From the IMG/VR virus record IMGVR_UViG_3300045988_110668: DNA of 63,351 bases, one strand, 5' to 3'. A model generated the notes under the pieces. The model saw only the letters and a list, made by a program, of their open reading frames with translations. It was not told the origin of the DNA and searched no databases. Position numbers and translations under genes: made by a program. The stretch comes from a virus. Below are positions 3,375 to 36,078 of the stretch, piece by piece. The first letter of the stretch is position 1. Each line of letters begins with the position of its first letter.

Positions 3375-4259
3375 TTAGGATTCAGAGTTAAGCAGAGAGC
3401 CTGTCGCCTTATTCAATACCAGATGATATTTCTTTTTCTCTCCTGCCTTAGTGGTTGCTTCAACGTCTACTATTACGTTGTCTCCTTCCAATGAATATGA
3501 GGTCTTGTCTACTCTTATTTCTTCATCGGTAAATGTAGTCTGCCAGACAAAAGATTCTAAGTATCTATATTCTGATATATCTACACAATTTACAGTATTG
3601 CCTGCTATATAAACCATATTCTTTACAGATAAAGCTATATAGTTCTTCTGCTCTATATAGGCAATAAATTTCTCTGTATGCATAAACCCAGTTAGATTTT
3701 TCCATATAATATTTAAATCTTTATCTAATACAGAGATAAAATATGCACTAGTTCTTATTGTGGAATATATCACAATATATTCTCCATACCATTCTGCTAT
3801 TTTTTCGGGGTAAAAGCGCAAGGATGGACTTTGAGAATCATATATGTCTAAATATTCTTTTTTTACTATTTTACCTTCTCTTACTTTTAACATAAATTTA
3901 TGAGGATGAGCAACCTGAGCGCCATATAAACTGACCAATATATAGAGATGATCATTCTTATTTAAAGCACTTAAAATGAAACATCCATTAACTGGGTATT
4001 CTTTAGTTTCTCCAAACCCTAAGTCCTCAATATACCCTTCCGCCTTATCCTTGATAGTAAAAGCCTTGTTGCCTGATTCGTCAATAGCCTCTATATAATA
4101 ATCTCCTTCAAAAATATAAGATTGTAGTTTAATATCACCTACTTGAACCGTACTATTGATACTATATTTTGGAGGTTCCGGTTCATCTATTACATCTTCA
4201 CTAGAACTACAGCCTGCTAATAGCAATATTGCTACTAAAGGGAATAAAATTTTCTTCAT
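3375..4259 (-). CDS. Lipoprotein (294 aa)
   Basis: Signal peptide plus lipobox: MKKILFPLVAILLLAGC|SSSED. Confidence 0.8.
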   Translation of the reverse strand: MKKILFPLVAILLLAGCSSSEDVIDEPEPPKYSINSTVQVGDIKLQSYIFEGDYYIEAIDESGNKAFTIKDKAEGYIEDLGFGETKEYPVNGCFILSALNKNDHLYILVSLYGAQVAHPHKFMLKVREGKIVKKEYLDIYDSQSPSLRFYPEKIAEWYGEYIVIYSTIRTSAYFISVLDKDLNIIWKNLTGFMHTEKFIAYIEQKNYIALSVKNMVYIAGNTVNCVDISEYRYLESFVWQTTFTDEEIRVDKTSYSLEGDNVIVDVEATTKAGEKKKYHLVLNKATGSLLNSES

Positions 4260-4279: not shown

Positions 4280-5146
4280 TTATTTAATAAGTTCTCCTGT
4301 CTCCTTGTCAAATTCAAAATTTAAGACCTCTTTTTCTTCCGTTATATACGTGATATTTATAGTAACAAGAATGGTATTATTCTGGGAATAGGAAGACTCC
4401 CAACTATTTATGACAAACTCATTATTATTAATATCACACATGTATTGCCAAATATAATGGGAAGAGTTGCGAATATCATACCAACTGATCCTCAAAGGAT
4501 TTTTAGCATGAATTCCCTCCCCTCCACTTACATTTATTACATGATACAAATCTAAAACTTTGCCATAATGAGTATGTTTGCTTATAAGATTTAATTCATT
4601 ATCATACACATGTCCTTCTGAAGCGGTTGCTTCTGGATATGCGGAATAGTTTTCAGATACATGTATACTATTATCAAACCAAAATGCCATATCCGTAGGC
4701 AAGTAAGAACTAGTATTCAATGTTACTGCATGAACCTTGCCATTCTCGTAAGAATATAACTTTCTAATTCCCCAAAAACTCAAAATATCAGATTGGTCTC
4801 TTAAATCTGCTAATAGATAATATGTATTTTCATATTGAAGAATATCAAAAATTTTAATATACGAAGCGATAACATCTTTTTTATTTCCATATCCCAAATC
4901 TATATCCAACTTAGTCCCTTTTCCTATTTCTTCGGACACTTCAAAAAGGAATTCATTATCTTTACTAACCTTTATGGTGTAATTTTCTTCATTAAAATCA
5001 ATATTACAGCTAAAACCATTAACTAAAAATGCATTATTATCACAGGATTCCGTGTTTTCCTCATTATTTTTCTCTGGAACAGGATCGCTTTCTTCGCTGC
5101 ATCCAATAAGAAACAGCAAGGCAAATATTAGAAATGCTTTATTCAT
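4280..5146 (-). CDS. Lipoprotein (288 aa), architecture similar to 3375..4259
   Basis: Signal peptide plus lipobox: MNKAFLIFALLFLIGC|SEESD. Confidence 0.8.
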   Translation of the reverse strand: MNKAFLIFALLFLIGCSEESDPVPEKNNEENTESCDNNAFLVNGFSCNIDFNEENYTIKVSKDNEFLFEVSEEIGKGTKLDIDLGYGNKKDVIASYIKIFDILQYENTYYLLADLRDQSDILSFWGIRKLYSYENGKVHAVTLNTSSYLPTDMAFWFDNSIHVSENYSAYPEATASEGHVYDNELNLISKHTHYGKVLDLYHVINVSGGEGIHAKNPLRISWYDIRNSSHYIWQYMCDINNNEFVINSWESSYSQNNTILVTINITYITEEKEVLNFEFDKETGELIK

Positions 5147-5277
5147 ATTTTGTGTGTATTATGGTTGTACAAAAGCAAAATAAATGACAACTGTTCATAA
5201 ATGCAAGGAAATCAACATATATCTTTACTTTGAAGGTAAAAAAGTTGTTTTTCCTTGCTTTTTTCAAAAATAGTTTG

Positions 5278-5460
5278 TATGTTTGCGGCGTTCAACATAT
5301 TTAAATCGACTGTGCAGGCGGAGCTTGCATTCTTATGCAGGCATTTTTTATGCTTGTATTTAAAATATTGAGGTATATTGTACCCCCGTGTGGAACTATA
5401 ATGGAACCACAGCATAGTCGATATGTGTTGAACAGCGGGAAAGGCAATATACCTTTTTTA
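5278..5460 (+). promoter_or_regulatory. Promoter plus structured leader with interleaved P1 helix and intrinsic terminator (leader copy 1)
   Basis: Elements in order: TATGTTTG 5278-5285; P1 strands 5290-5311 / 5416-5433; box GCAGGCATTTTTTATGCTTGTA 5337-5358; terminator stem 5372-5380 / 5445-5453; T6. Confidence 0.7.
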
Positions 5461-5517
5461 TTTATTGTTATGTTCAACAATATCGACAATCATCATCAAA
5501 CAAATAATAGTAGTTTG

Positions 5518-6258
5518 ATGGCGACGTTAATCCACGACACGGATAGAATGAGTTCGCTTGAAATAGCTGAACTTACAGGCAAAAGACATGATGCTATCTT
5601 GCGAGACATCAGGAACTTACTAAAACAAGGAGTATCACACCACAATTTTGTGGAGACATCCTACAAGCAACCACAGCCAAGAGGAGGATATAAAGAACTC
5701 CCCTGCTTCGAACTCACCAAGAAAGGATGCCTGATCCTCGCCTCCGGCTACGACGCAGTACTCCGTGAGAAGATTATTGATCGCTGGGAACAACTCGAAC
5801 TAGAGAAGCGCAAACCTCAAACTCCCCAAACCTACCTCGAAGCCCTGAAAGCCCTCGTATCATCGGAAGAGGAAAAGCAACGGCTGGCACAGGAGAAGAA
5901 GCAACTAGAACAGCAAAACGCCAAACTCCAGCCAAAAGCAGCCTTTGCCGACGCAGCCTTCGCCACCGACGACAAGGTAGACATAGGAATGTCCGCCAAG
6001 ATCCTAAAGCTCGGATTCGGGCGAAATACCCTATTCGACAAGCTAAGGAAAGCGGGCGTATTCTTCGCCAACCGCAACGAACCCAAACAGAGGTTTATTG
6101 ATGCCGGATACTTCGAGATGAAGGAGAAATTCATCGAGCGAAACAATCATCCGGGATTTGTCGTAACCAAAGTGCTAGTTACCCAAAAGGGATTGGCTTA
6201 TCTGAACCACCTGTTTGGAGGAAAACCTTCTGACGGAAAGCTAGCCAAGATAGTATAA
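5518..6258 (+). CDS. Antirepressor-type protein (Rha-like N-terminus plus KilAC/ANT-like C-terminus)
   Basis: Start chosen at MATLIHDTDRMSSLEIAELTGKRHDAILRDIRNL (Rha-like). C-terminus reads KAAFADAAF...DIGMSAKILKLG...LFDKLRKAGV...GYFE (KilAC-like). The upstream 61 codons of the track ORF overlap the leader RNA. Confidence 0.75.
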   Translation: MATLIHDTDRMSSLEIAELTGKRHDAILRDIRNLLKQGVSHHNFVETSYKQPQPRGGYKELPCFELTKKGCLILASGYDAVLREKIIDRWEQLELEKRKPQTPQTYLEALKALVSSEEEKQRLAQEKKQLEQQNAKLQPKAAFADAAFATDDKVDIGMSAKILKLGFGRNTLFDKLRKAGVFFANRNEPKQRFIDAGYFEMKEKFIERNNHPGFVVTKVLVTQKGLAYLNHLFGGKPSDGKLAKIV

Positions 6259-6603: not shown

Positions 6604-7320
6604 TCACATTGCCAACAGATTGATGATACCCTGTCTGCCAATTCCGGTAATCTTTCTATGGTAGATAATATGACCGTTGTCAGCAACCTCTTGCTTTATA
6701 TCAAACCAACCAAGCGTAGAGTATTTGGTGTATGGAACCCACGTCTGATTAACTTTGTATTGTACGCCAAGTTCTTTTAAACGGTTATTGAGTTCAATTG
6801 CCGATTTAAGCCCTAGCTCTTTCGCAACCTCCGTACATGTATAGGTCTTATTGACATGAGTAAGCACAGCTACCTGTTTCTCCGCTTCAATGCGTGCCGA
6901 CCGTTCCTCTTTTAGCTTAGTGAGAAGTTCAATACCGAAATCCGGATTATTCAATATCTGGTCAATAATATTGTCGGTAGCATAGATGCCATGTTTGCGG
7001 ATTGAAGGTAGCACTTCACTAGTTATCCATTTACGAAACGGTTTTACCTTTTGAGAAGAACTTTGAAGGATTACATCGTAAAAACCTGATTCAGTAACAA
7101 AATTAGCTTTTGTATTTCCGATACTACCCTTTGTATAATTTAGGGCGTGTAAATCAAGCAATTGTACATCCTCGCTATCTAACCTACTCTTCACAGTTGT
7201 TGGATTTTGTAACTCCAGCACTTTGCAAATATCTGCCAAGCAGAATAATGGTTCTTCACTTGTTCCGGCTACACGCACTTCACCGAAAGCTTCATTTTTG
7301 AAAATCTGAATATCATTCAT
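6604..7320 (-). CDS. Bro-N plus KilAC-type antirepressor
   Basis: Start at MNDIQIFKNEAFGEVRVAGTSEEPLFCLADICKVLEL (Bro-N). The 31 upstream track codons overlap a leader terminator. Confidence 0.75.
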   Translation of the reverse strand: MNDIQIFKNEAFGEVRVAGTSEEPLFCLADICKVLELQNPTTVKSRLDSEDVQLLDLHALNYTKGSIGNTKANFVTESGFYDVILQSSSQKVKPFRKWITSEVLPSIRKHGIYATDNIIDQILNNPDFGIELLTKLKEERSARIEAEKQVAVLTHVNKTYTCTEVAKELGLKSAIELNNRLKELGVQYKVNQTWVPYTKYSTLGWFDIKQEVADNGHIIYHRKITGIGRQGIINLLAM

Positions 7321-7358
7321 ACAATTTTCGTAGTGTGCCCTTTCACACACAGGAATAT

Positions 7359-7475
7359 AAAAAAACAGCACCGAACGCTTGAGGATCTTTCGGCACTGTT
7401 TATATATTCCCAACTCTATGGAAATACTTAATATCTTATATGCGCTTCCCCAAGCTGTATCGCACTACAAATATA
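7359..7475 (-). promoter_or_regulatory. Promoter (TATATTTG, 7475-7468) plus a leader containing an intrinsic terminator
   Basis: Minus strand: ACAGTGCCGAA-N13-TTCGGTGCTGT (two G-U pairs) followed by T7, ~40 nt upstream of the ATG at 7320. Confidence 0.6.
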
Positions 7476-11987: not shown

Positions 11988-12740
11988 TTACTTTAATTTT
12001 AAATTTTTGAACATCGATTTCACCTTATTGCCATGCATGTCGGCTTCCTTTTCTTCAAGTGAAGATTCTTTCCGATTCTCCGGCTTGAAAGATGCAAGTG
12101 ACATTGCTTTTGATATAATTCTTTGTATCTTCTGTTGCTTGGATGCGGACATTCCTGAACACATTTCAGATATTTCGAAATTTAATTCTTCATAAGCTTT
12201 TTCAGTATCTTCTATAGATTTTAACCCCAAATATTCAGTTTTCCCATTGCAACCGATAGAGACTACTGATATCTCATAAAGCTTTACCTCTTTCACAATG
12301 AAAGCGTCTTTTTCCGCATCGTATTCGCAATTTTCCCACACATATTGATAACCTATAGAGAACTGGTTTAAAGTTCCAGATTCGAGCTGTTTTATTGCCT
12401 GTTCTCCTCTCAGTACTTCATCTATTATTGCTTCAAAATAAAGCCCCTTTTCATCTTCGTTCAATACTGTAATCCGACCTATAGGTTCATTCATGTTATG
12501 CATCCACAACATGATTATCTTGTCATTTGCAGAACTCTCTGGACCTCGATCTTGGATACTCTTCGAGAAACAACCCTTAACCAATATATCTCCGGCTTTA
12601 TCTTTATTCCCAAAGACCGCAGCATAACCGCTAATAGTACGGCTTTCGTTGTCGTAATTTACTTCTTTAGCATAAATGGAGAATGTCTTATACTGCATCC
12701 CCATTCTTCCGCTATATTTATTAGTTTTATCCATTTTCAA
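11988..12740 (-). CDS. Prohead protease (HK97 / S78-like)
   Basis: 250-aa ORF between the portal and capsid genes. N-terminal region ISGYAAVFGNKDKAGDILVKGCFSKSI resembles prohead proteases. Confidence 0.65.
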   Translation of the reverse strand: MKMDKTNKYSGRMGMQYKTFSIYAKEVNYDNESRTISGYAAVFGNKDKAGDILVKGCFSKSIQDRGPESSANDKIIMLWMHNMNEPIGRITVLNEDEKGLYFEAIIDEVLRGEQAIKQLESGTLNQFSIGYQYVWENCEYDAEKDAFIVKEVKLYEISVVSIGCNGKTEYLGLKSIEDTEKAYEELNFEISEMCSGMSASKQQKIQRIISKAMSLASFKPENRKESSLEEKEADMHGNKVKSMFKNLKLK

Positions 12741-14040
12741 TAGAGTTATTAGTTTTTAATTCACCTTTTGGATTATCAGGATCAATATCTATAAACTTTG
12801 CTAGCTCATTTCTGGATTCATCAAGAGTTATTTGACCTTTTTCAACTAACTGAATTAAAGAAGAAGCCATTTTCTGAAATGCAGAAGAAGATGATGATTT
12901 ATCCTTTTGAAGGCAGTCTACATGGGTATAATCCAGCTTTATAAAAACACCCTTAGGGCAAATAGCGTCCGTTAAAGCTTCTGCAACTTTTTCAGAATCA
13001 GGAATAATAAGACCTTGATAAGCTGATTTTTCAGCTATGCTTTTATTGTCATATTTAGATTCATCAAATAAGCTATAATCAACTCCTACCGCATTGCATA
13101 TCTTTCTGCTACATCGTTCATCCTCTTCATGAAGTTTAAGCTGGGAGGAATCATAATTCAAAGGAATCCAACCAAGTTTTATCTTTGATGTCAGAATTGG
13201 GAATTTATTGAGAATGCCATATTTTTCTTTTAGTTTAGATTCCAATATTTCTTTTTCCTCTGGTGTCATAACTTGATTACCCATCTTATCGGTATAATCA
13301 GAATAAATAATACCTTTGGGACCGCCATTTACAATTAATTGATAACTGGCTGTCATCGCTGCAATCCAGTTATTAACCGGCATAGAAAGGGAGTCTGTAA
13401 CAGAAGAGAATTCTATGTCTCGATTGGAACCATTAACATTTGCAGAACTATCGTAAATTACAAAGTAGTCTTCGTCTGATAATTCTTCCCGCAAACCATC
13501 CCACTCCAAGTATACGCTAGAAACAATATCCTTTATATCATACTGGCGAAATAGTTTCCCAGAAGAAACCATGTGAAATATCTGTGCAGGTATGATATAC
13601 ATTGCGAGTGGCAATGATTTTTTTGCTGCTCTTACAGTGAAAATGGGACAATATCCGAAAAGTTTAAGAGACATCTCAATCTCTTTTAAAAAACCAACCC
13701 TTGTTTGAAGTGGATTAGGACGTGACAACAACTCTCTAATGTCGTTATATCCCTCTTTTTCATTACCTTCCTTATCTGTGACATATATTTTCCCATTCGC
13801 AAAAAGAGAACCTATTTTATTTACAACAGTAGAAAACGGGGTACATACAAGAAGAGAATCTGCTTTATCCCTATCCAATGTTAGATCATAATCATTTTTA
13901 ATTTTACCAGATGGCGAGAAGAAATTGGAAAGATACCAGAAATTCCCATTAGAATCCTTTTCAATAGCCTTTACTGTCTCTCTCATGGAGGGAACAGATA
14001 TATTAATCCTTTTTTGAAACCAATTTCCTAATTTAGACAT
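12727..14040 (-). CDS. Portal protein
   Basis: ~437-aa ORF upstream of the protease. Start chosen at MSKLGNWFQKRI (ATG 14040). Confidence 0.65.
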   Translation of the reverse strand: MSKLGNWFQKRINISVPSMRETVKAIEKDSNGNFWYLSNFFSPSGKIKNDYDLTLDRDKADSLLVCTPFSTVVNKIGSLFANGKIYVTDKEGNEKEGYNDIRELLSRPNPLQTRVGFLKEIEMSLKLFGYCPIFTVRAAKKSLPLAMYIIPAQIFHMVSSGKLFRQYDIKDIVSSVYLEWDGLREELSDEDYFVIYDSSANVNGSNRDIEFSSVTDSLSMPVNNWIAAMTASYQLIVNGGPKGIIYSDYTDKMGNQVMTPEEKEILESKLKEKYGILNKFPILTSKIKLGWIPLNYDSSQLKLHEEDERCSRKICNAVGVDYSLFDESKYDNKSIAEKSAYQGLIIPDSEKVAEALTDAICPKGVFIKLDYTHVDCLQKDKSSSSSAFQKMASSLIQLVEKGQITLDESRNELAKFIDIDPDNPKGELKTNNSIENG

Positions 14041-14267
14041 AAAAAGAATGATTATCTGATTTGAGATAACCATTCCCTACGAAATGAAGAGGTCTTTACG
14101 GACAAAAACACTAACGAAAAAATCCGATAGCATAAAAACGTATAGGTTCCGTGCGTCTTCACACGAAGGGATTGGTAATCCTCACCGCAAATATATATAT
14201 TATTTCTATTTAGTCCAAATAAAAATAGATAATTATTTTATGATGAAATAGACATGTTTATATAAAC

Positions 14268-14617: not shown

Positions 14618-15448
14618 TCAAGACAATTTTGCAAGTTGGAACCCTAATAGCCCCAATAGTTCTATAAATTTATCCTCATACCATAAAGGTTGAGTGCTTT
14701 TAGGATTGTTGGGATTGACTTGATTTTCACCGTACAAAAGACCTGATTCAGTTATGGATTTGAAAGGCTTGTCTTTACCATGTGACGATTTTCTTTTCAT
14801 CTCACATAAGAATCCCTTTTGAATTGCTCTTTGATTAAACGCTTGTGCACTGATAGATAATCCTTTTTCTTTGAGCAATTCAGTGGCGGACTTTACTATC
14901 CCTTTGCTTGGGGTATAATCGGGTGTAGGTAATCCGAGAGGAGTGGCTACTTTCCCAAGCAATGAAAGTTTAGAAGAATCATTAAGATTAAGCAGTTCAC
15001 TTACACCCTTTACCCATTCAAGACCAACACGGACTTTTGTTGTTAAGGATGGCTCACGCTTAGATTTGTTCTGGTCTTCGATTGTTTTCTGGGCAGTGTG
15101 GTGGAATACTTGTCTGTACACCTCAAACACAGGTCTTACTTTGCGGGCGATGAAGAACTCCATACAAGAAACGGTTAGGTAGTAGTTCACTTTGTTGTTA
15201 CCTCCCCAACTTGCTTCATCTTGCTTGCCATTTTGGGCAAGCGTTTTGTAATCAACTCCTTCAATGAATTGCTCGTTTGATGTCAAAGCTCTAACAGCCT
15301 TTCCCTTTTCAGAATAGACCAACGGCCACACTTCATCAAGGTTAATTGGGAACTCGTTATCAGATTGGGATAACTTTAATACAACGTTGAAGTACGCTTT
15401 GATTTCGCTTTCGCTACTTTCCTTTGATAGAATAATTTCTTTTGCCAT
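14618..15448 (-). CDS. Antirepressor-like DNA-binding protein (276 aa)
   Basis: It occupies the same cassette position as the Rha/KilAC gene. The N-terminus FPINLDEVWPLVYSEKGKAVRAL..FIEGVDY resembles phage antirepressor N-domains; this family call is from memory only. Confidence 0.5.
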   Translation of the reverse strand: MAKEIILSKESSESEIKAYFNVVLKLSQSDNEFPINLDEVWPLVYSEKGKAVRALTSNEQFIEGVDYKTLAQNGKQDEASWGGNNKVNYYLTVSCMEFFIARKVRPVFEVYRQVFHHTAQKTIEDQNKSKREPSLTTKVRVGLEWVKGVSELLNLNDSSKLSLLGKVATPLGLPTPDYTPSKGIVKSATELLKEKGLSISAQAFNQRAIQKGFLCEMKRKSSHGKDKPFKSITESGLLYGENQVNPNNPKSTQPLWYEDKFIELLGLLGFQLAKLS

Positions 15449-15469
15449 TTTTGTAACGTTTTATGGCAT

Positions 15470-15660
15470 TGCAGAAAAAAAGACGGTCTGCAATTAACCC
15501 GTCGTTACACATACCTTAGTGGCAGTTGGGAAGCTGTTAACTTTCCTCACAGGTTTGCAGACCGTTGTATTATATATACAGCGTACTTACAAGCATAAAA
15601 AATGCCTGCTATTAGCAGACAACCGTCTGCCACTAAATATGTGTAACGCTGCAAATATAC
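15470..15660 (-). promoter_or_regulatory. Promoter plus structured leader (leader copy 2)
   Basis: Elements: TATATTTG 15659-15652; P1 strands 15647-15627 / 15525-15504 (20 bp); identical 22-nt box 15609-15588; terminator stem 15565-15555 / 15493-15483 (11 bp); T-run. Confidence 0.7.
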
Positions 15661-15812: not shown

Positions 15813-17693
15813 TTATATCATTTTTAAAGATTTTACACGAGCACATACACAAGATAGCACATACATACTTTCAAAACTGTTAATGCCGTCATAATCAGAC
15901 ATATTAGCTATTAATGCACTAAATGAATCATCCAATTCTGGAAAACAGATTGTTTTAATAATCGATTTATAAGATTCAATCATGGTTTTCTTGTCTGCTG
16001 TTTCTTCTCTTACCCACAAATTATGATCAACACGCCTTCTATAATCGTCTGCATAATGTTTCATCTCAACAGGTATCTCCATTTGTGCATTCCCGTCTAT
16101 TTTATTAATAAGCTGGTCAACAGGTATTAACGAATCGGAGAACAAGCAATCAATCATGAATATCTTTCCGTCAACAGCACAATAAGAAACCATTATAAAT
16201 AGCCCATTAATATTCGGGTGTATCTCAACAAATATATGGTTATTTTCTCCCATCTCTTCTTTCTTGTAGTACAGGACATCTATTTCACCTCTCATTTCCA
16301 CAGTTCCTGTAAGAGCATCGCAAGCATCATCATAAGAATTCTTTCCTTTCTTCCTATATGTTTTCAGTTGAGACGCAAACTCCGGCCACCTCCTTTCCCA
16401 ATCAGTAGGAAAATAAGTAAGATTTATCACCTCGGAAGATCTGGTAAAGATCCGAACCTCCTTATTTTTTGACTGATGAAACCAGCTTACTTGAGTCCTA
16501 GGATTACCAATTATCCGCATCTGTTTCTCTACATTCCTAGCAAATCCTCTTCCTCCATTATTGCTTTCCATATTCGCCTTGGATATTTGGTCTTTAGTAA
16601 GCATTTTAGCTGTTTCCGGCTCGGTAAATTCCATGTCCTTTTGTGTAAAAAGGACATCAAGAATAAAATTTCCTATCTCCGTATCAATATAATCAATAGA
16701 GCATAAATAATCACTCCCCGTATCTGCTGTATCTGTGTAATTCTTTCTTATTGCCCTATTTGTGATTGGTATAGTATCATAAGTTTTAAATTTACTATAC
16801 ATTAAGCCCTCCATAGGAGTAGGATTCTGCATATATTGAGTTTCAAAGACATAGCTGTTTACTTTTTGCATTCTATGCAGTTCTTCAAGTGTATGCTTAA
16901 ACTCCCATAAGGCTTTCTCTTCCCCATTTTCATAGACTATTACAGGAAGTGACAAAACAGTCCATTCTCCTGGCTCCGTTTCCATTAAATATCCGCAAAG
17001 GTCATGCTCATGAAGCCTTTGCATGATGATTATGATAGGGGTATTCCGTGAGTTTACACGGTTTCTTATTGTTGTTTCAAACCTTTGATTTACTTTTTCC
17101 CTAGGAGTGTCAGATATCGCATCTTCAGGCTTAACCGGATCGTCAATAATCAATGCACCTGCAAATTTAGAAGAAGGTTTTAATTCTTCTAATGCTTCGG
17201 ATAAATCGTTTTTATCATCGACAGCACCGGCTCCAAAACCTGTAACTTGCCCCCCAGCAGCCGTAGCGTACATGCCACCTCCTTCTGTTGTGTACCATTT
17301 CTTTTTTGCATCACTAGTTTTCTTTATGCCTACATAAGGAAATATACACTTGTATTCTTCCGACTTAACTATATCTCTTACTTCCTCCGAATTATCATTA
17401 GCAAGATCATCAGAATAAGACAAATGAAGAAATTTGGCAGATGGATTGATTGCAAGTCCATACGATATGAAATTCTTAACTACTAATTCCGTCTTGGAAT
17501 ACCTCGGAGCTATGTTTATAATCAGTTTCTTTATTTTTCCGTCAATCACATCATCAAGAGCCTGGCATATCTTTACGTGATGGTCGTTTACTACAAATTT
17601 ACGACCAAATCTTGCTTTAAAGAAATACCTCGTATAGTTCAATGTTCCTGACAAGCAAAATGCCCGTATGTAATCATATCCTTCCCCCATCAT
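15813..17693 (-). CDS. terL: Terminase large subunit
   Basis: 626-aa ORF overlapping the stop of the small-terminase gene. It has an ATPase-like N-terminal half (..LIINIAPRYSKTE.., ..ALIIDDPVKPED..) and a nuclease-sized C-terminal half. Confidence 0.8.
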   Translation of the reverse strand: MMGEGYDYIRAFCLSGTLNYTRYFFKARFGRKFVVNDHHVKICQALDDVIDGKIKKLIINIAPRYSKTELVVKNFISYGLAINPSAKFLHLSYSDDLANDNSEEVRDIVKSEEYKCIFPYVGIKKTSDAKKKWYTTEGGGMYATAAGGQVTGFGAGAVDDKNDLSEALEELKPSSKFAGALIIDDPVKPEDAISDTPREKVNQRFETTIRNRVNSRNTPIIIIMQRLHEHDLCGYLMETEPGEWTVLSLPVIVYENGEEKALWEFKHTLEELHRMQKVNSYVFETQYMQNPTPMEGLMYSKFKTYDTIPITNRAIRKNYTDTADTGSDYLCSIDYIDTEIGNFILDVLFTQKDMEFTEPETAKMLTKDQISKANMESNNGGRGFARNVEKQMRIIGNPRTQVSWFHQSKNKEVRIFTRSSEVINLTYFPTDWERRWPEFASQLKTYRKKGKNSYDDACDALTGTVEMRGEIDVLYYKKEEMGENNHIFVEIHPNINGLFIMVSYCAVDGKIFMIDCLFSDSLIPVDQLINKIDGNAQMEIPVEMKHYADDYRRRVDHNLWVREETADKKTMIESYKSIIKTICFPELDDSFSALIANMSDYDGINSFESMYVLSCVCARVKSLKMI

Positions 17694-29133: not shown

Positions 29134-29904
29134 TTATGCGGCATCTTTCCCTAGAAACTTATTCACAAAATAGATTTGTCCTTTTCCCGTAACCTTCGTT
29201 GTAGTAGTAACTAACACCGTCCCATCTGGCTTGGTTATTGTTGTTTGTTTTATTTCAAACAATCCTAATTCCATAGATTTTTGTGTAGGTTGATTATAAT
29301 ATTGTCCTTTCTGACAGAGATAGCCATTATCACGCAGCCATGAGAACAAGCGATTTTGACCGATATTCACACCGTTCTGCTGTAGTATCTTCGCTAATTC
29401 AGCGATCAAACAAGAACGTTGGGAAGTCGAGACCGCATCGGCAAAAAGAACTTTAGGAGCGTCCTGTTGAATTTTACTTTCTACTTCGATAAGGCGCTGC
29501 TCTTTTCGTTTCAGTGTTTCTTGTGCTACAATCAACGCACGTGCCATAATTTCTTCGGGAGTATCATTTTGCTGGGTTGTAATATAGCCGCCATGTTTGC
29601 GGATAGATGGAAGAACTTCGCCACATACCCAATCTTGGAAAGGTTCGGCTTGTGGTTTATCCGAACGCATGATTACTTTATATAGATTCTTTTCTGTTAC
29701 AAAATTCATCTGCTGTGCTCTACCCATTGAATCTATGACCCCAAACCGAATGGGGGCATCCTTTATTCTTGATTGTACGGCGTCTACTCTTAACTCAAGC
29801 ACTTTACACACATCTGCCAAGCAGAATAATGGTTCTTCATTCTCATTCATCGCAATTCTTACCTCTCCGAATTGCTCATTCTGAAAGATTTTAATTTTAT
29901 TCAT
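29134..29904 (-). CDS. Bro-N plus KilAC-type antirepressor
   Basis: IFQNEQFGEVRIAMNENEEPLFCLADVCKVLEL (Bro-N) with a C-terminal LFADAVSTSQRSCLIAELAKIL..GYL (KilAC-like) region. Confidence 0.75.
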   Translation of the reverse strand: MNKIKIFQNEQFGEVRIAMNENEEPLFCLADVCKVLELRVDAVQSRIKDAPIRFGVIDSMGRAQQMNFVTEKNLYKVIMRSDKPQAEPFQDWVCGEVLPSIRKHGGYITTQQNDTPEEIMARALIVAQETLKRKEQRLIEVESKIQQDAPKVLFADAVSTSQRSCLIAELAKILQQNGVNIGQNRLFSWLRDNGYLCQKGQYYNQPTQKSMELGLFEIKQTTITKPDGTVLVTTTTKVTGKGQIYFVNKFLGKDAA

Positions 29905-29975: not shown

Positions 29976-30212
29976 TTAAATATTTGATAACAGAAACTTT
30001 AAACAATCCTTGTGTGGATCGCCTGAATGATGACTAAAATGGTAATCCTGGAATTGCTGGAATAATCCTTGCGAGAGTATGAAGGCATAAGCTTCATTCT
30101 TGCAATTTTTTTCGATTAGGAACTTTTCATAAGATACAGTTTTCGCACTGCTGGGCGCAAAGTTGGGGTTACTATTATTCGCCTTAACTCTGATTTCGTT
30201 GGTTCTTGGCAT
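29976..30212 (-). CDS. Hypothetical protein (78 aa), first gene after leader copy 3
   Basis: Track ORF. Confidence 0.5.
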   Translation of the reverse strand: MPRTNEIRVKANNSNPNFAPSSAKTVSYEKFLIEKNCKNEAYAFILSQGLFQQFQDYHFSHHSGDPHKDCLKFLLSNI

Positions 30213-30231
30213 TGAACGAAATTTGAGTTGT

Positions 30232-30413
30232 TAAAAACAAGAAAGGCTATCGCCTCCCGTTCCGCCAAGAACCGACACCGTTAGAGATAACGAGCATCCA
30301 ATGGGATTTGATAGCCTTATATCTTTGCAATATTACGCTTACAAACGAACATAAAAATATGCACGTTAATCTCTTTCAGAAGTCTTGTTCTTGGCGTGAA
30401 CACCGCAAAGATA
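30232..30413 (-). promoter_or_regulatory. Promoter plus structured leader (leader copy 3)
   Basis: Elements: TATCTTTG 30413-30406; P1 strands 30401-30387 / 30272-30259 (14 bp); box-like hairpin 30364-30340; terminator stem 30318-30310 / 30251-30243 (9 bp); TTTCTTGTTTTT. Confidence 0.65.
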
Positions 30414-35651: not shown

Positions 35652-36078
35652 GATTAATTAAAAAAGTGCACTATCTTCACAGACCGTACACTATACAACA
35701 CACAAACACAAAATAAAACACTACATAAAAGTGCCCTACCCGATTCTCACTACCGGATGTCAGTTTCAAACTGTCAGTAGGGCTATATTACAATCAGCGT
35801 ACGGACGCCTATTCCCGTTTTCTTACTGATAAAGACGATGTTTTTCAGACTGATTTTTTCGATATATTACTTACTCACGTTGCTTCCTTCCGCTCATATC
35901 ATCGCTGGTTGGCTATTACGCTATACTCCGCCTCGGCTATAATGCTTATTAGCGCAGGCTACTTTAACGTGCCCTGAACACGGCTTCATTTTTGAGGGTT
36001 AAGCCTCCCATCCCGAATTAGGATTCATCGGTTTACCGTTATGCTCTGAAAGCGTTTCGCTCGCTTCTTCCGTAGGTT
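35652..36078 (-). ncRNA. ORF-free, relatively GC-rich segment with many local helices (candidate structured ncRNA; the alternative is an origin region)
   Basis: No ORF of 60 aa or more in any frame from 35194 to 36078. Helices include GCCCTAC/GTAGGGC (35733-39 / 35777-83) enclosing CAGTT/AACTG. Confidence 0.3.

Follow-up and report, generated by a model that had tools for sequence, protein, structure and literature searches.

The locus described here raises the question of how a gut phage may keep an antirepressor gene silent. It lies in the IMG/VR virus record IMGVR_UViG_3300045988_110668, a stretch of 63,351 nucleotides (nt) hereafter called the window, and consists of a structured leader (5278-5517, + strand) ahead of an Rha/KilAC antirepressor gene. 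Antirepressors are switches by which a phage or a signal induces prophages, and we know of essentially nothing on their silencing in Bacteroidota, the dominant gut phylum. A sequence-only reading had found in this leader a long helix (P1) interleaved with the stem of an intrinsic terminator (T), had listed two further copies in the window, and had proposed an attenuator or antitermination switch. The structure and the stem with its U-run were upheld by our analysis, but a plain attenuator that sets P1 against T was not. A copy of one P1 strand that co-varies with P1 is found at the start codon of the gene, and this points to translational or antisense control of the type known from the c4 RNA of phages P1 and P7 and the CI RNA of phage P4, not to a plain attenuator. 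On balance, we incline to the view that the element is an antisense control cassette encoded in the leader of antirepressor-type genes, one that resembles c4 and CI RNA and lies outside those families.

The most informative feature had received only a passing mention: a second segment similar to the 5' strand of P1 (P1a), which was said to be able to pair with the 3' strand (P1b) at 5416-5433. This pairing was confirmed, with 8 + 8 bp in copy 1. The segment was found in every subfamily, and it changes together with P1 across the family. Members were gathered with an nhmmer profile and two pattern scans of IMG/VR, plus species-representative genomes. For 51 distinct addresses, as we call the variable sequences of P1b, from the scan anchored on the 3' core of the element, the 110 nt downstream were searched for the longest exact match to the reverse complement of P1b; its mean length was 8.45 nt, against 5.31 ± 0.16 nt in permuted pairings (z = 20; none of 2000 permutations reached the observed value). 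In about 44 of 52 elements of this 3'-anchored set, the match begins on the first open ATG or abuts it with a gap of 0-7 nt (aaaaTACTCTACAatg, aaaaGTCTTCCACCTatg and caaCTGCTAAACGatg are typical). In the first set the best match is on this ATG or no more than 18 nt from it in about 27 of 28 members (listed matches read by eye). The complementarity to P1b covers 8-19 nt that abut or include the downstream start codon, and hence fall in the translation-initiation region (TIR).

The three copies of the window place this target differently. In copy 1 and its relatives an in-frame ATG is followed by P1a repeated without its bulge (ATG-GTTCAACA-ATATCGAC). The target of copy 2 and its relatives is in two parts, with the first 7-8 nt of P1a placed 3-5 nt ahead of the ATG and the end of P1a repeated as AUGGCA. 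In copy 3 the ATG is inside the match. The cognate P1b:TIR duplexes of copies 1, 2 and 3 have energies of -22.1, -11.4 and -21.9 kcal/mol, against -4.5 to -10.3 kcal/mol for the non-cognate combinations, and the three copies are mutually orthogonal. The competing P1b:P1a duplex of copy 1 has -29.8 kcal/mol. Different addresses are also found within each of two loci with tandem cassettes, L082 (11878-12334, -) and L050 (4835-5549, +). Each carries two complete cassettes with their own address and their own downstream open reading frame (ORF); the two ORFs of L082 are paralogues, starting with MKNNQNP... and MKININP... The RNA and the TIR move as one module: locus L012 and copy 2 share the RNA and ...CGTTACAAAAATGGCAAA, and their proteins differ from residue 4 onwards.

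Sequence diversity is distributed very unevenly. Among 19 close relatives of copy 1 it reaches 0.45 in the inner part of P1a, 0.33 in the inner part of P1b and 0.34 in the variable part of the TIR, against 0.04-0.16 in most other parts of the element. The exception is the 3' strand of T (Tb, 0.29), whose changes are matched in the 5' strand (Ta). The outer parts of P1a and of the TIR have 0.05 and 0.06, and the next 110 nt of coding sequence 0.15. In copy 1 the conserved outer part of P1a is at 5290-5300 and the hypervariable inner part at 5301-5313. This distribution bears on an explanation in which the element acts only in cis. A ligand, a phage or host protein or another signal would bind a conserved core, composed of the second hairpin (hp2), the CCCCGUG/CGGGAAAGG junction and the loop UAAUG of the third hairpin (hp3), and, as in a riboswitch-like or protein-sensing switch, would stabilize or destabilize P1. 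With P1 formed the TIR would be free and the gene on; with P1 open P1b would hold the TIR, T would terminate and the gene would be off, with neither trans action nor immunity. Such a switch is suggested by the conserved core blocks that stand beside a variable, covarying P1 throughout the family, an arrangement typical of aptamers. Moreover, where Shine-Dalgarno sites are absent an anti-TIR strand must co-vary with any TIR sequence, and the P1 and T folds are 7-13 kcal/mol apart. However, diversity is concentrated 3-8 fold in the address segments of otherwise near-identical elements, and all copies within one genome differ in address. Both are expected of a trans-acting determinant that avoids cross-talk, and a cis-only switch needs neither. 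The heterogeneous downstream genes, in turn, suggest no ligand or partner. We consider regulation in cis alone rather unlikely.

Several lines of evidence confirmed that the element is a structured RNA. On direct reading, all coordinates and strings reported earlier for copy 1 were correct. Copies 2 and 3 have the layout in the same order, with other helix sequences and preserved pairing, and copies 1 and 2 indeed share the same 22-nt box of hp2. In the window the box pattern GCAT(N)TTTTTATGYTYGT was counted three times; 100 shuffled sequences contained none. Each copy folds about 5 standard deviations better than dinucleotide shuffles (z ~ -5), and the family profile, run with nhmmer on the window, matched exactly these three copies. 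Covariation was analyzed on a MAFFT alignment of 28 diverse members that was not fitted to any structure, and the helices in register were counted. Paired cells amounted to 92.5%, against 81.0% in shuffles (0 of 500 reached the observed value) and 35-40% with partners slid by 1-3 columns, and the covariation score was 0.381 against 0.189. Eighteen pairs are altered on both sides among these homologues, which substantiates the compensatory change that had been noticed between the three copies.

The individual helices contribute as follows. P1 of copy 1 has 11 + 7 = 18 bp, one of them U·G, interrupted by a bulge of 4 nt, and 3-4 extra pairs extend it to 5315/5412; compensatory change was found in all seven outer pairs, with up to five pair types. 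In the first hairpin (hp1) three of four pairs have changed on both sides. Compensatory variants of hp2 (GGUAU:AUACC, GGAU:AUAUC and GGUGC:GUGCC) were found in members from the other anchor. In hp3, the small variable hairpin described before, the stem covaries and the loop, U(G/U)UAAUG, is conserved. A helix not noticed before, PK2, joins CCCG(U) to (G)CGGG, linking the base behind the 5' strand of T with the one behind the 3' strand of P1. This helix is 99.3% paired, has two pairs with compensatory change (CCCA:UGGG, CCUG:CAGG) and was predicted independently by RNAalifold. T and the inner part of P1 vary in length and were tested with RNAduplex, comparing cognate with non-cognate strands: the cognate P1a:P1b duplex beats all unrelated pairs in 27 of 28 members (z = -8.3), and the cognate Ta:Tb duplex in 26 of 28 (z = -4.9).

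In the helices G·U pairs outnumber A·C pairs by 103 to 23, so the structure is read as RNA on the strand proposed earlier. The same count argues against a DNA-level element, in which the three address copies would be operator- or iteron-like protein sites and the RNA helices a by-product. A sequence of 10-20 nt that occurs three times (direct, inverted, direct) beside genes of DNA-binding-type proteins is what such sites might look like. Yet six further covarying helices are not address copies, a promoter precedes the element, and a stem and a U-run follow it. In addition, the DNA-binding domains at the N-termini of the downstream proteins are nearly invariant (0.15), whereas the address is variable (0.34-0.45). 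This explanation is disfavoured and seems to us very improbable.

P1 and T are interleaved as described, and since both covary, both must form at some time. They are not mutually exclusive folds of the ordinary kind: P1 (5290-5315/5412-5433) and T with PK2 (5372-5389/5435-5453) use disjoint bases in a pseudoknot topology, whereas the helices of a classical attenuator share nucleotides. T and PK2 add up to a stem of about 14 bp; hp3 and P1b lie in its "loop", while P1a comes from the 5' end of the RNA. When pseudoknots are left out, P1 gives the better of the two folds, by the difference mentioned above. Any antagonism between P1 and T would have to be topological or kinetic; on kinetic grounds, a 20-bp P1 that formed first would slow the winding of the 14-bp T on a tethered 3' strand. 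Tb is followed by T6-T8 in most members. The loop of T has about 55 nt, too long for T to be called by the terminator scan, which instead called a local hairpin in copy 3 and, in both copy 1 and copy 2, another hairpin followed by U6.

This other hairpin changes the view of the 22-nt box, until then taken for a hairpin and nothing more: the 5' strand of the box has a second partner in the 3' strand of hp1. The box is the 3' half of a four-segment switch, in which S1:S2 and S3:S4 (hp1 and hp2) compete with S2:S3, a terminator-like stem directly before a conserved U5-7 tract. Here, in contrast to P1 and T, the alternative helices do share nucleotides as in classical attenuators. In nascent RNA reaching to the U tract, S2:S3 is in the minimum-energy fold of about 20 of the 28 members. 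Its stability is similar to that of hp1 (-9 to -14 kcal/mol), and hp1 plus hp2 win once S4 is present. S2:S3 is 85.9% paired, against 78.2% in shuffles and 28-51% with slid partners, has four pairs altered on both sides, and was the pairing preferred by RNAalifold. The 3'-anchored members keep all three pairings with quite different sequences (CCGCUU:AAGCGG; GCACC:GGUGC, then U7). The U5-7 tract is always present in this set, and its conservation is therefore no artefact of the first search pattern. In copy 3, neither the terminator scan nor the nascent folds gave a clear S2:S3 hairpin. As S1 overlaps the 3' end of P1a, occupancy of P1a would favour the terminator-like S2:S3 fold.

The element is also delimited by a predicted promoter of Bacteroidetes type before it and a stem with a U-run after it, as proposed earlier. 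The -7 box TAnnTTTG ends 3 nt before P1a in 60 of 61 elements. A -33 TTTG is found 17-21 nt upstream of this box in 41 of the 61, and in 31 of these the distance is exactly 19 nt. Elements in this count have the -7 box by construction, and copy 1 has TTGC at the 19-nt spacing. By sequence, this matches the Bacteroidetes housekeeping promoter (TTTG, spacer of about 19 nt, TAnnTTTG), and transcription presumably starts and stops where these consensus motifs suggest. The S2:S3 hairpin with its U tract (t1) and T/PK2 with its U-run (t2) are putative conditional terminators. An internal promoter in the hp2 box, where TATGCTTG resembles TAnnTTTG, is unlikely: the variable positions track the pairing of S3, and many members have two or more mismatches. 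Table 1 lists the features of the three copies; in copy 1, AGCGGGAAAGG is located between the 3' strands of P1 and T.

Table 1. Features of the three cassettes in the window and of their targets
Feature	Position	Strand	Details	Basis
Copy 1 promoter	5255-5285	+	-33-like TTGC 5255-5258, 19-nt spacer, -7 box TATGTTTG 5278-5285	
Copy 1 P1a	5290-5315	+	P1 5' strand, at or near RNA 5' end	fold, covariation
Copy 1 hp1	5312-5330	+	S1 5312-5319, loop GGA, S2 5323-5330	fold, covariation
Copy 1 S2:S3 (t1)	5323-5349	+	alternative hairpin GCTTGCAT/ATGCAGGC 5323-5342, abuts U6 5344-5349	terminator scan
Copy 1 hp2	5337-5358	+	22-nt box GCAGGCATTTTTTATGCTTGTA: S3 GCAGGCAT, U-rich loop, S4 ATGCTTGT	96.9% paired
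Copy 1 Ta	5372-5380	+	GGTATATTG, 5' strand of long-range T stem	sequence, cognate-pairing test
Copy 1 PK2a	5385-5389	+	CCCGU, partner 5435-5439; lengthens T over internal loop	covariation
Copy 1 hp3	5390-5410	+	small hairpin (TGTGG..CCACA), loop U(G/U)UAAUG	covarying stem
Copy 1 P1b	5412-5433	+	P1 3' strand, complementary to P1a and to start-codon region	duplex energies
Copy 1 PK2b	5435-5439	+	GCGGG, then conserved AAAGG internal loop 5440-5444	alignment, covariation
Copy 1 putative terminator t2	5445-5459	+	Tb CAATATACC 5445-5453, U6 5454-5459	sequence, cognate-pairing test
Copy 1 TIR target	5470-5487	+	ATG 5470-5472 and GTTCAACAATATCGAC 5472-5487; 8 + 8 bp with P1b	
Copy 1 gene	5470-6258	+	Phage_pRha + ANT (KilAC), 262 aa if start is 5470	Pfam
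Copy 2 element	15475-15659	-		nhmmer E = 4.6e-31
Copy 2 -7 box	15659-15652	-		
Copy 2 P1a	15647-15627	-		
Copy 2 hp2	15609-15588	-		
Copy 2 Ta	15564-15555	-		
Copy 2 PK2a	15554-15549	-		
Copy 2 P1b	15525-15504	-		
Copy 2 PK2b	15502-15497	-		
Copy 2 Tb	15493-15484	-		
Copy 2 U-run	15483-15475	-		
Copy 2 target	15443-15458	-	bipartite, CGTTACA-aaaa-ATGGCA; ATG 15448-15446 opens ORF 14618-15448	
Copy 3 element	30233-30413	-		nhmmer E = 6.7e-11
Copy 3 -7 box	30413-30406	-		
Copy 3 P1a	30401-30387	-		
Copy 3 hp2	30366-30345	-		
Copy 3 Ta	30318-30310	-		
Copy 3 P1b	30273-30259	-		
Copy 3 Tb	30251-30243	-		
Copy 3 U-run	30242-30233	-		
Copy 3 target	30201-30217	-	GTTCAATGCCAAGAACC; holds ATG 30212-30210 of 78-aa ORF 29976-30212	

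The cassette proposed here would consist, in this order, of the -33/-7 promoter, an RNA of about 175 nt, the terminator and the TIR of the gene behind it. P1b would be its hypervariable address, able to pair either with the 5' end of its own RNA (P1a) or with the TIR. Pairing of P1b with the TIR would block translation of the antirepressor-type gene, P1a would act as a built-in competitor that masks P1b, and t1, in its alternation with hp1/hp2, and t2, which encloses P1b, would meter read-through. Either the RNA that ends at the terminator or a 3' domain cut from it, with P1b displayed in the T/PK2 loop, probably also acts in trans on transcripts that have the same address. If it does, the gene would be silent in lysogens and immunity would be address-specific, as with c4 and CI RNA.

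Some observations weigh against this model. In cis, the P1a:P1b duplex (-26 to -34 kcal/mol) always beats P1b:TIR (-11 to -24 kcal/mol), so some step must free P1b, with P1a removed, occupied or kinetically bypassed; processing, RNase III cleavage of the P1 duplex and pairing in trans are candidates. With 7-8 nt and AUGGCA (-11.4 kcal/mol), the target of the copy 2 type does not surpass what chance sites elsewhere in the window reach, and the P1b:TIR energies of copies 1 and 3 are about those of the best chance matches in 126 kb. Since chance sites match the TIR energies, the case rests on position and co-variation, not on energy. A test of P1b by energy only was noisy, with 8 of 21 ranking first when downstream stretches of 178 nt were used and 13 of 28 with stretches of 110 nt, and this test was replaced by the exact-match length and the position relative to the ATG. 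The members are related to each other, and their counts are not independent events. Finally, small ORFs without known function make up about half of the genes behind the element in the wider set, and antirepressor control is thus not valid for every member.

The model is close to that of the c4 RNA. In c4 (immI of phages P1 and P7), the segment a'b' pairs with a1b1 upstream and with a2b2 at the translation start of icd, before ant, and a1b1 has been put forward as a competitor of a2b2 (PMC2864571, citing Citron and Schuster 1990). P1b would correspond to a'b', P1a to a1b1 and the TIR to a2b2 at the icd ribosome-binding site. As in c4, the antisense segment is complementary to an upstream site and to a downstream translation start (the z = 20 given above), the upstream site is a proposed competitor of the downstream one, and specificity differs between related phages. 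The RNA lies upstream of the antirepressor operon on the same strand, although some members precede small ORFs. Copy 3 adds a further likeness, as its target is a small ORF before an antirepressor gene, just as icd precedes ant in phage P1. There are also clear differences. The element matches no Rfam model, that of C4 (RF01695) included, it has about 175 nt against about 77 nt, and its host phylum is a different one, without Shine-Dalgarno-led initiation. It has a single long address instead of two short loops, its P1 is interleaved with the terminator stem, and its 5' half has an extra four-segment switch and a U tract. The RNA ends at an intrinsic-terminator-like stem, and RNase P processing is not known for it.

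With the CI RNA of phage P4 (seqA - seqB - seqC) the element shares a central leader segment complementary to one upstream and one downstream site. The action of CI RNA is reportedly linked to premature transcription termination, and in our element, judging from its sequence, occupancy of P1a would favour the terminator-like S2:S3 fold followed by U6. Unlike in P4, the downstream site is on the start codon and the controlled genes are of antirepressor type instead of replication genes; there is no homology. We also put forward a more specific proposal, tentatively and as possible, short of probable: an address-coded immunity switch that acts in trans with two locks. The RNA, terminated or processed, would bind P1a of nascent transcripts with the same address and unmask the S2:S3 + U-tract terminator, as in P4, and the same RNA would block translation at the start-codon region of transcripts that had read through, as in c4. 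With attenuators and riboswitch platforms the element has in common alternative hairpins built from four segments, one fold of which abuts a U tract, and a variable closing helix (P1) around conserved junction sequences. It differs from them in that P1 and the main terminator T have no common bases, that no ligand is known, and that the closing helix, besides being hypervariable among close relatives, recurs at the start codon. The element appears to be an RNA family unrelated to c4 and CI with the same three-site antisense logic, to which the interleaved terminator and the upstream four-segment switch would be additions.

The genes behind the element were only in part those expected. Copy 1 stands before an Rha/KilAC antirepressor gene as described, but copies 2 and 3 are not directly before genes of this type. 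The gene of copy 2 encodes a 276-aa protein without Pfam match, whose two halves look similar, by eye, to antirepressor-type proteins encoded downstream of other members. Behind copy 3 there is first a 78-aa ORF and then a Bro-N + ANT gene (29134-29904). Other members are followed by genes for Rha, AntA, Bro-N, KilA-N + ANT or ANT proteins, one SymE_toxin and several small ORFs. The link to antirepressor-type genes is strong, if not for every member.

These genes also bear on a type I toxin-antitoxin-like module, in which the RNA would be the antitoxin and its role addiction or abortive infection instead of lysis-lysogeny control. The SymE_toxin gene (PF08845, E = 4e-14), about 200 nt past the element start in L123, a metagenome-assembled genome of Tannerella sp., fits such a module, as do the complementarity at the start codon and the many small downstream ORFs without known function. 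SymE of Escherichia coli is controlled by an antisense RNA. On the other hand, most identified genes encode Rha, AntA, Bro-N, KilA-N or ANT proteins of 230-290 aa, not short hydrophobic toxins, and none of the window genes (262-aa Rha + ANT, 276 aa, 78 aa before Bro-N + ANT) is of the small toxic type. Furthermore, the RNA lies in tandem with its gene, on one and the same strand, and masks itself through P1a, features in which it departs from known type I antitoxins. We regard a toxin-antitoxin role as improbable.

The start of the copy 1 gene had been placed at the ATG at 5518. This ATG is present, but an in-frame ATG at 5470 stands at the beginning of the second P1a-like segment. All 19 close relatives keep the frame from 5470 open, and where relatives were read by eye, insertions and deletions are whole codons; for this reason 5470 is preferred and is probably the gene start. 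The resulting extension has 16-17 codons (MFNNIDNHHQTNNSSL...), and codons 2-6 are the variable target. In copy 1 a frame at 5335-6258 (+), with ATGs at 5335 and 5350, is open through the 3' half of the RNA into the Rha gene, which we take as a coincidence. A conserved leader peptide was rejected: the frame of copy 1 is open from an ATG in the hp2 box, but in copy 2 the same ATG leads to a stop after 8 codons. A fourth copy was considered before a Bro-N + ANT gene (6604-7413, -) that converges on the copy 1 gene. This gene has its own TATATTTG box at 7475-7468 (-) and no element, and therefore not every such gene of the window is under this control.

The family is abundant and extends far beyond this genome. 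In all, more than 140 distinct members with about 50 P1 sequences were found in temperate phages and prophages of Bacteroidales, a lower bound from the two IMG/VR scans. The hp2-box pattern gave at least 118 loci in IMG/VR viral contigs, and about 95 of those listed carry the element according to the family profile. A stricter pattern gave 7 matches in species-representative genomes, belonging to Bacteroides, Parabacteroides, Segatella copri, Tannerella and Bacteroidaceae/Bacteroidales. The independent 3'-core pattern (ACCCCCGTG...CGGGAAAGG) gave at least 117 loci in IMG/VR; the matches listed contain 93 distinct elements, only 24 of which have the original box. The sequence-only reading knew of no named RNA family with this layout, and a cmscan of the whole window with Rfam at gathering thresholds gave nothing at the three loci, and no match to C4. 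Its sole match was a DUF2693-FD RNA (RF02926) at 35733-35783 (-), with 56.5 bits (gathering score 44.5) and E = 1.5e-10. A permissive E-value scan of 5150-5600 gave chance-level matches, none of them to C4, c4-type or isrK models. The 261-nt element had no match among the GenBank phages of INPHARED, even in distant mode, and no description of it was found in literature searches. The Bacteroides-2 motif (Weinberg 2010) was rejected as its identity, being a different, G+C-rich sequence.

If the cassette works as proposed, it would be the first RNA-based antirepressor control described in Bacteroidota. Its design is unusual, with a hypervariable address written three times, a long closing helix interleaved with the terminator and a second four-segment switch upstream. 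It would show RNA gating of translation in bacteria without Shine-Dalgarno-led initiation, and would offer a natural set of some 50 or more orthogonal RNA/target pairs for Bacteroides engineering. RNA-defined phage immunity groups in the gut would become directly testable. Should the two-lock model be true, the fast-evolving, thrice-copied address would let one phage run several orthogonal antirepressor modules, and RNA-defined heteroimmunity groups of gut Bacteroidales phages would decide which incoming phage induces which prophage.

Relatives of copies 2 and 3 have a further conserved motif, YAAUGCC(A/U), in the interval from the terminator U-run to the start-codon target; it is found at 15461-15474 (-), 30208-30217 (-) and many other loci (e.g. 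L008, L038 and L050). Its sequence is similar to the hp3 loop UAAUG and complementary to GGCAUU in the 5' strand of hp2; as it is invariant, covariation is uninformative on it. A conserved upstream ORF at this motif (YAATGCC) was rejected, since lengths and frames vary and one member has AAC instead of ATG.

The window is a Bacteroides-type temperate phage with portal, terminase-like, YqaJ and VRR-NUC genes, and its relatedness to the temperate Bacteroides phages BKO1-TP3 and BS-TP2/3/4 is confined to patches. The cassette of copy 2 lies, together with its gene (14618-15448, -), between the terminase-like (15813-17693) and portal (12727-14073) genes, moron-like within the packaging/head module. 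Just upstream of copy 1, on the opposite strand, there are two adjacent paralogue-like ORFs (3375-4259 and 4280-5146, -) of 294 and 288 aa with lipoprotein-type signal peptides (…LLAGCSS and …LIGCSEE), which may be phage accessory (moron) or exclusion genes.

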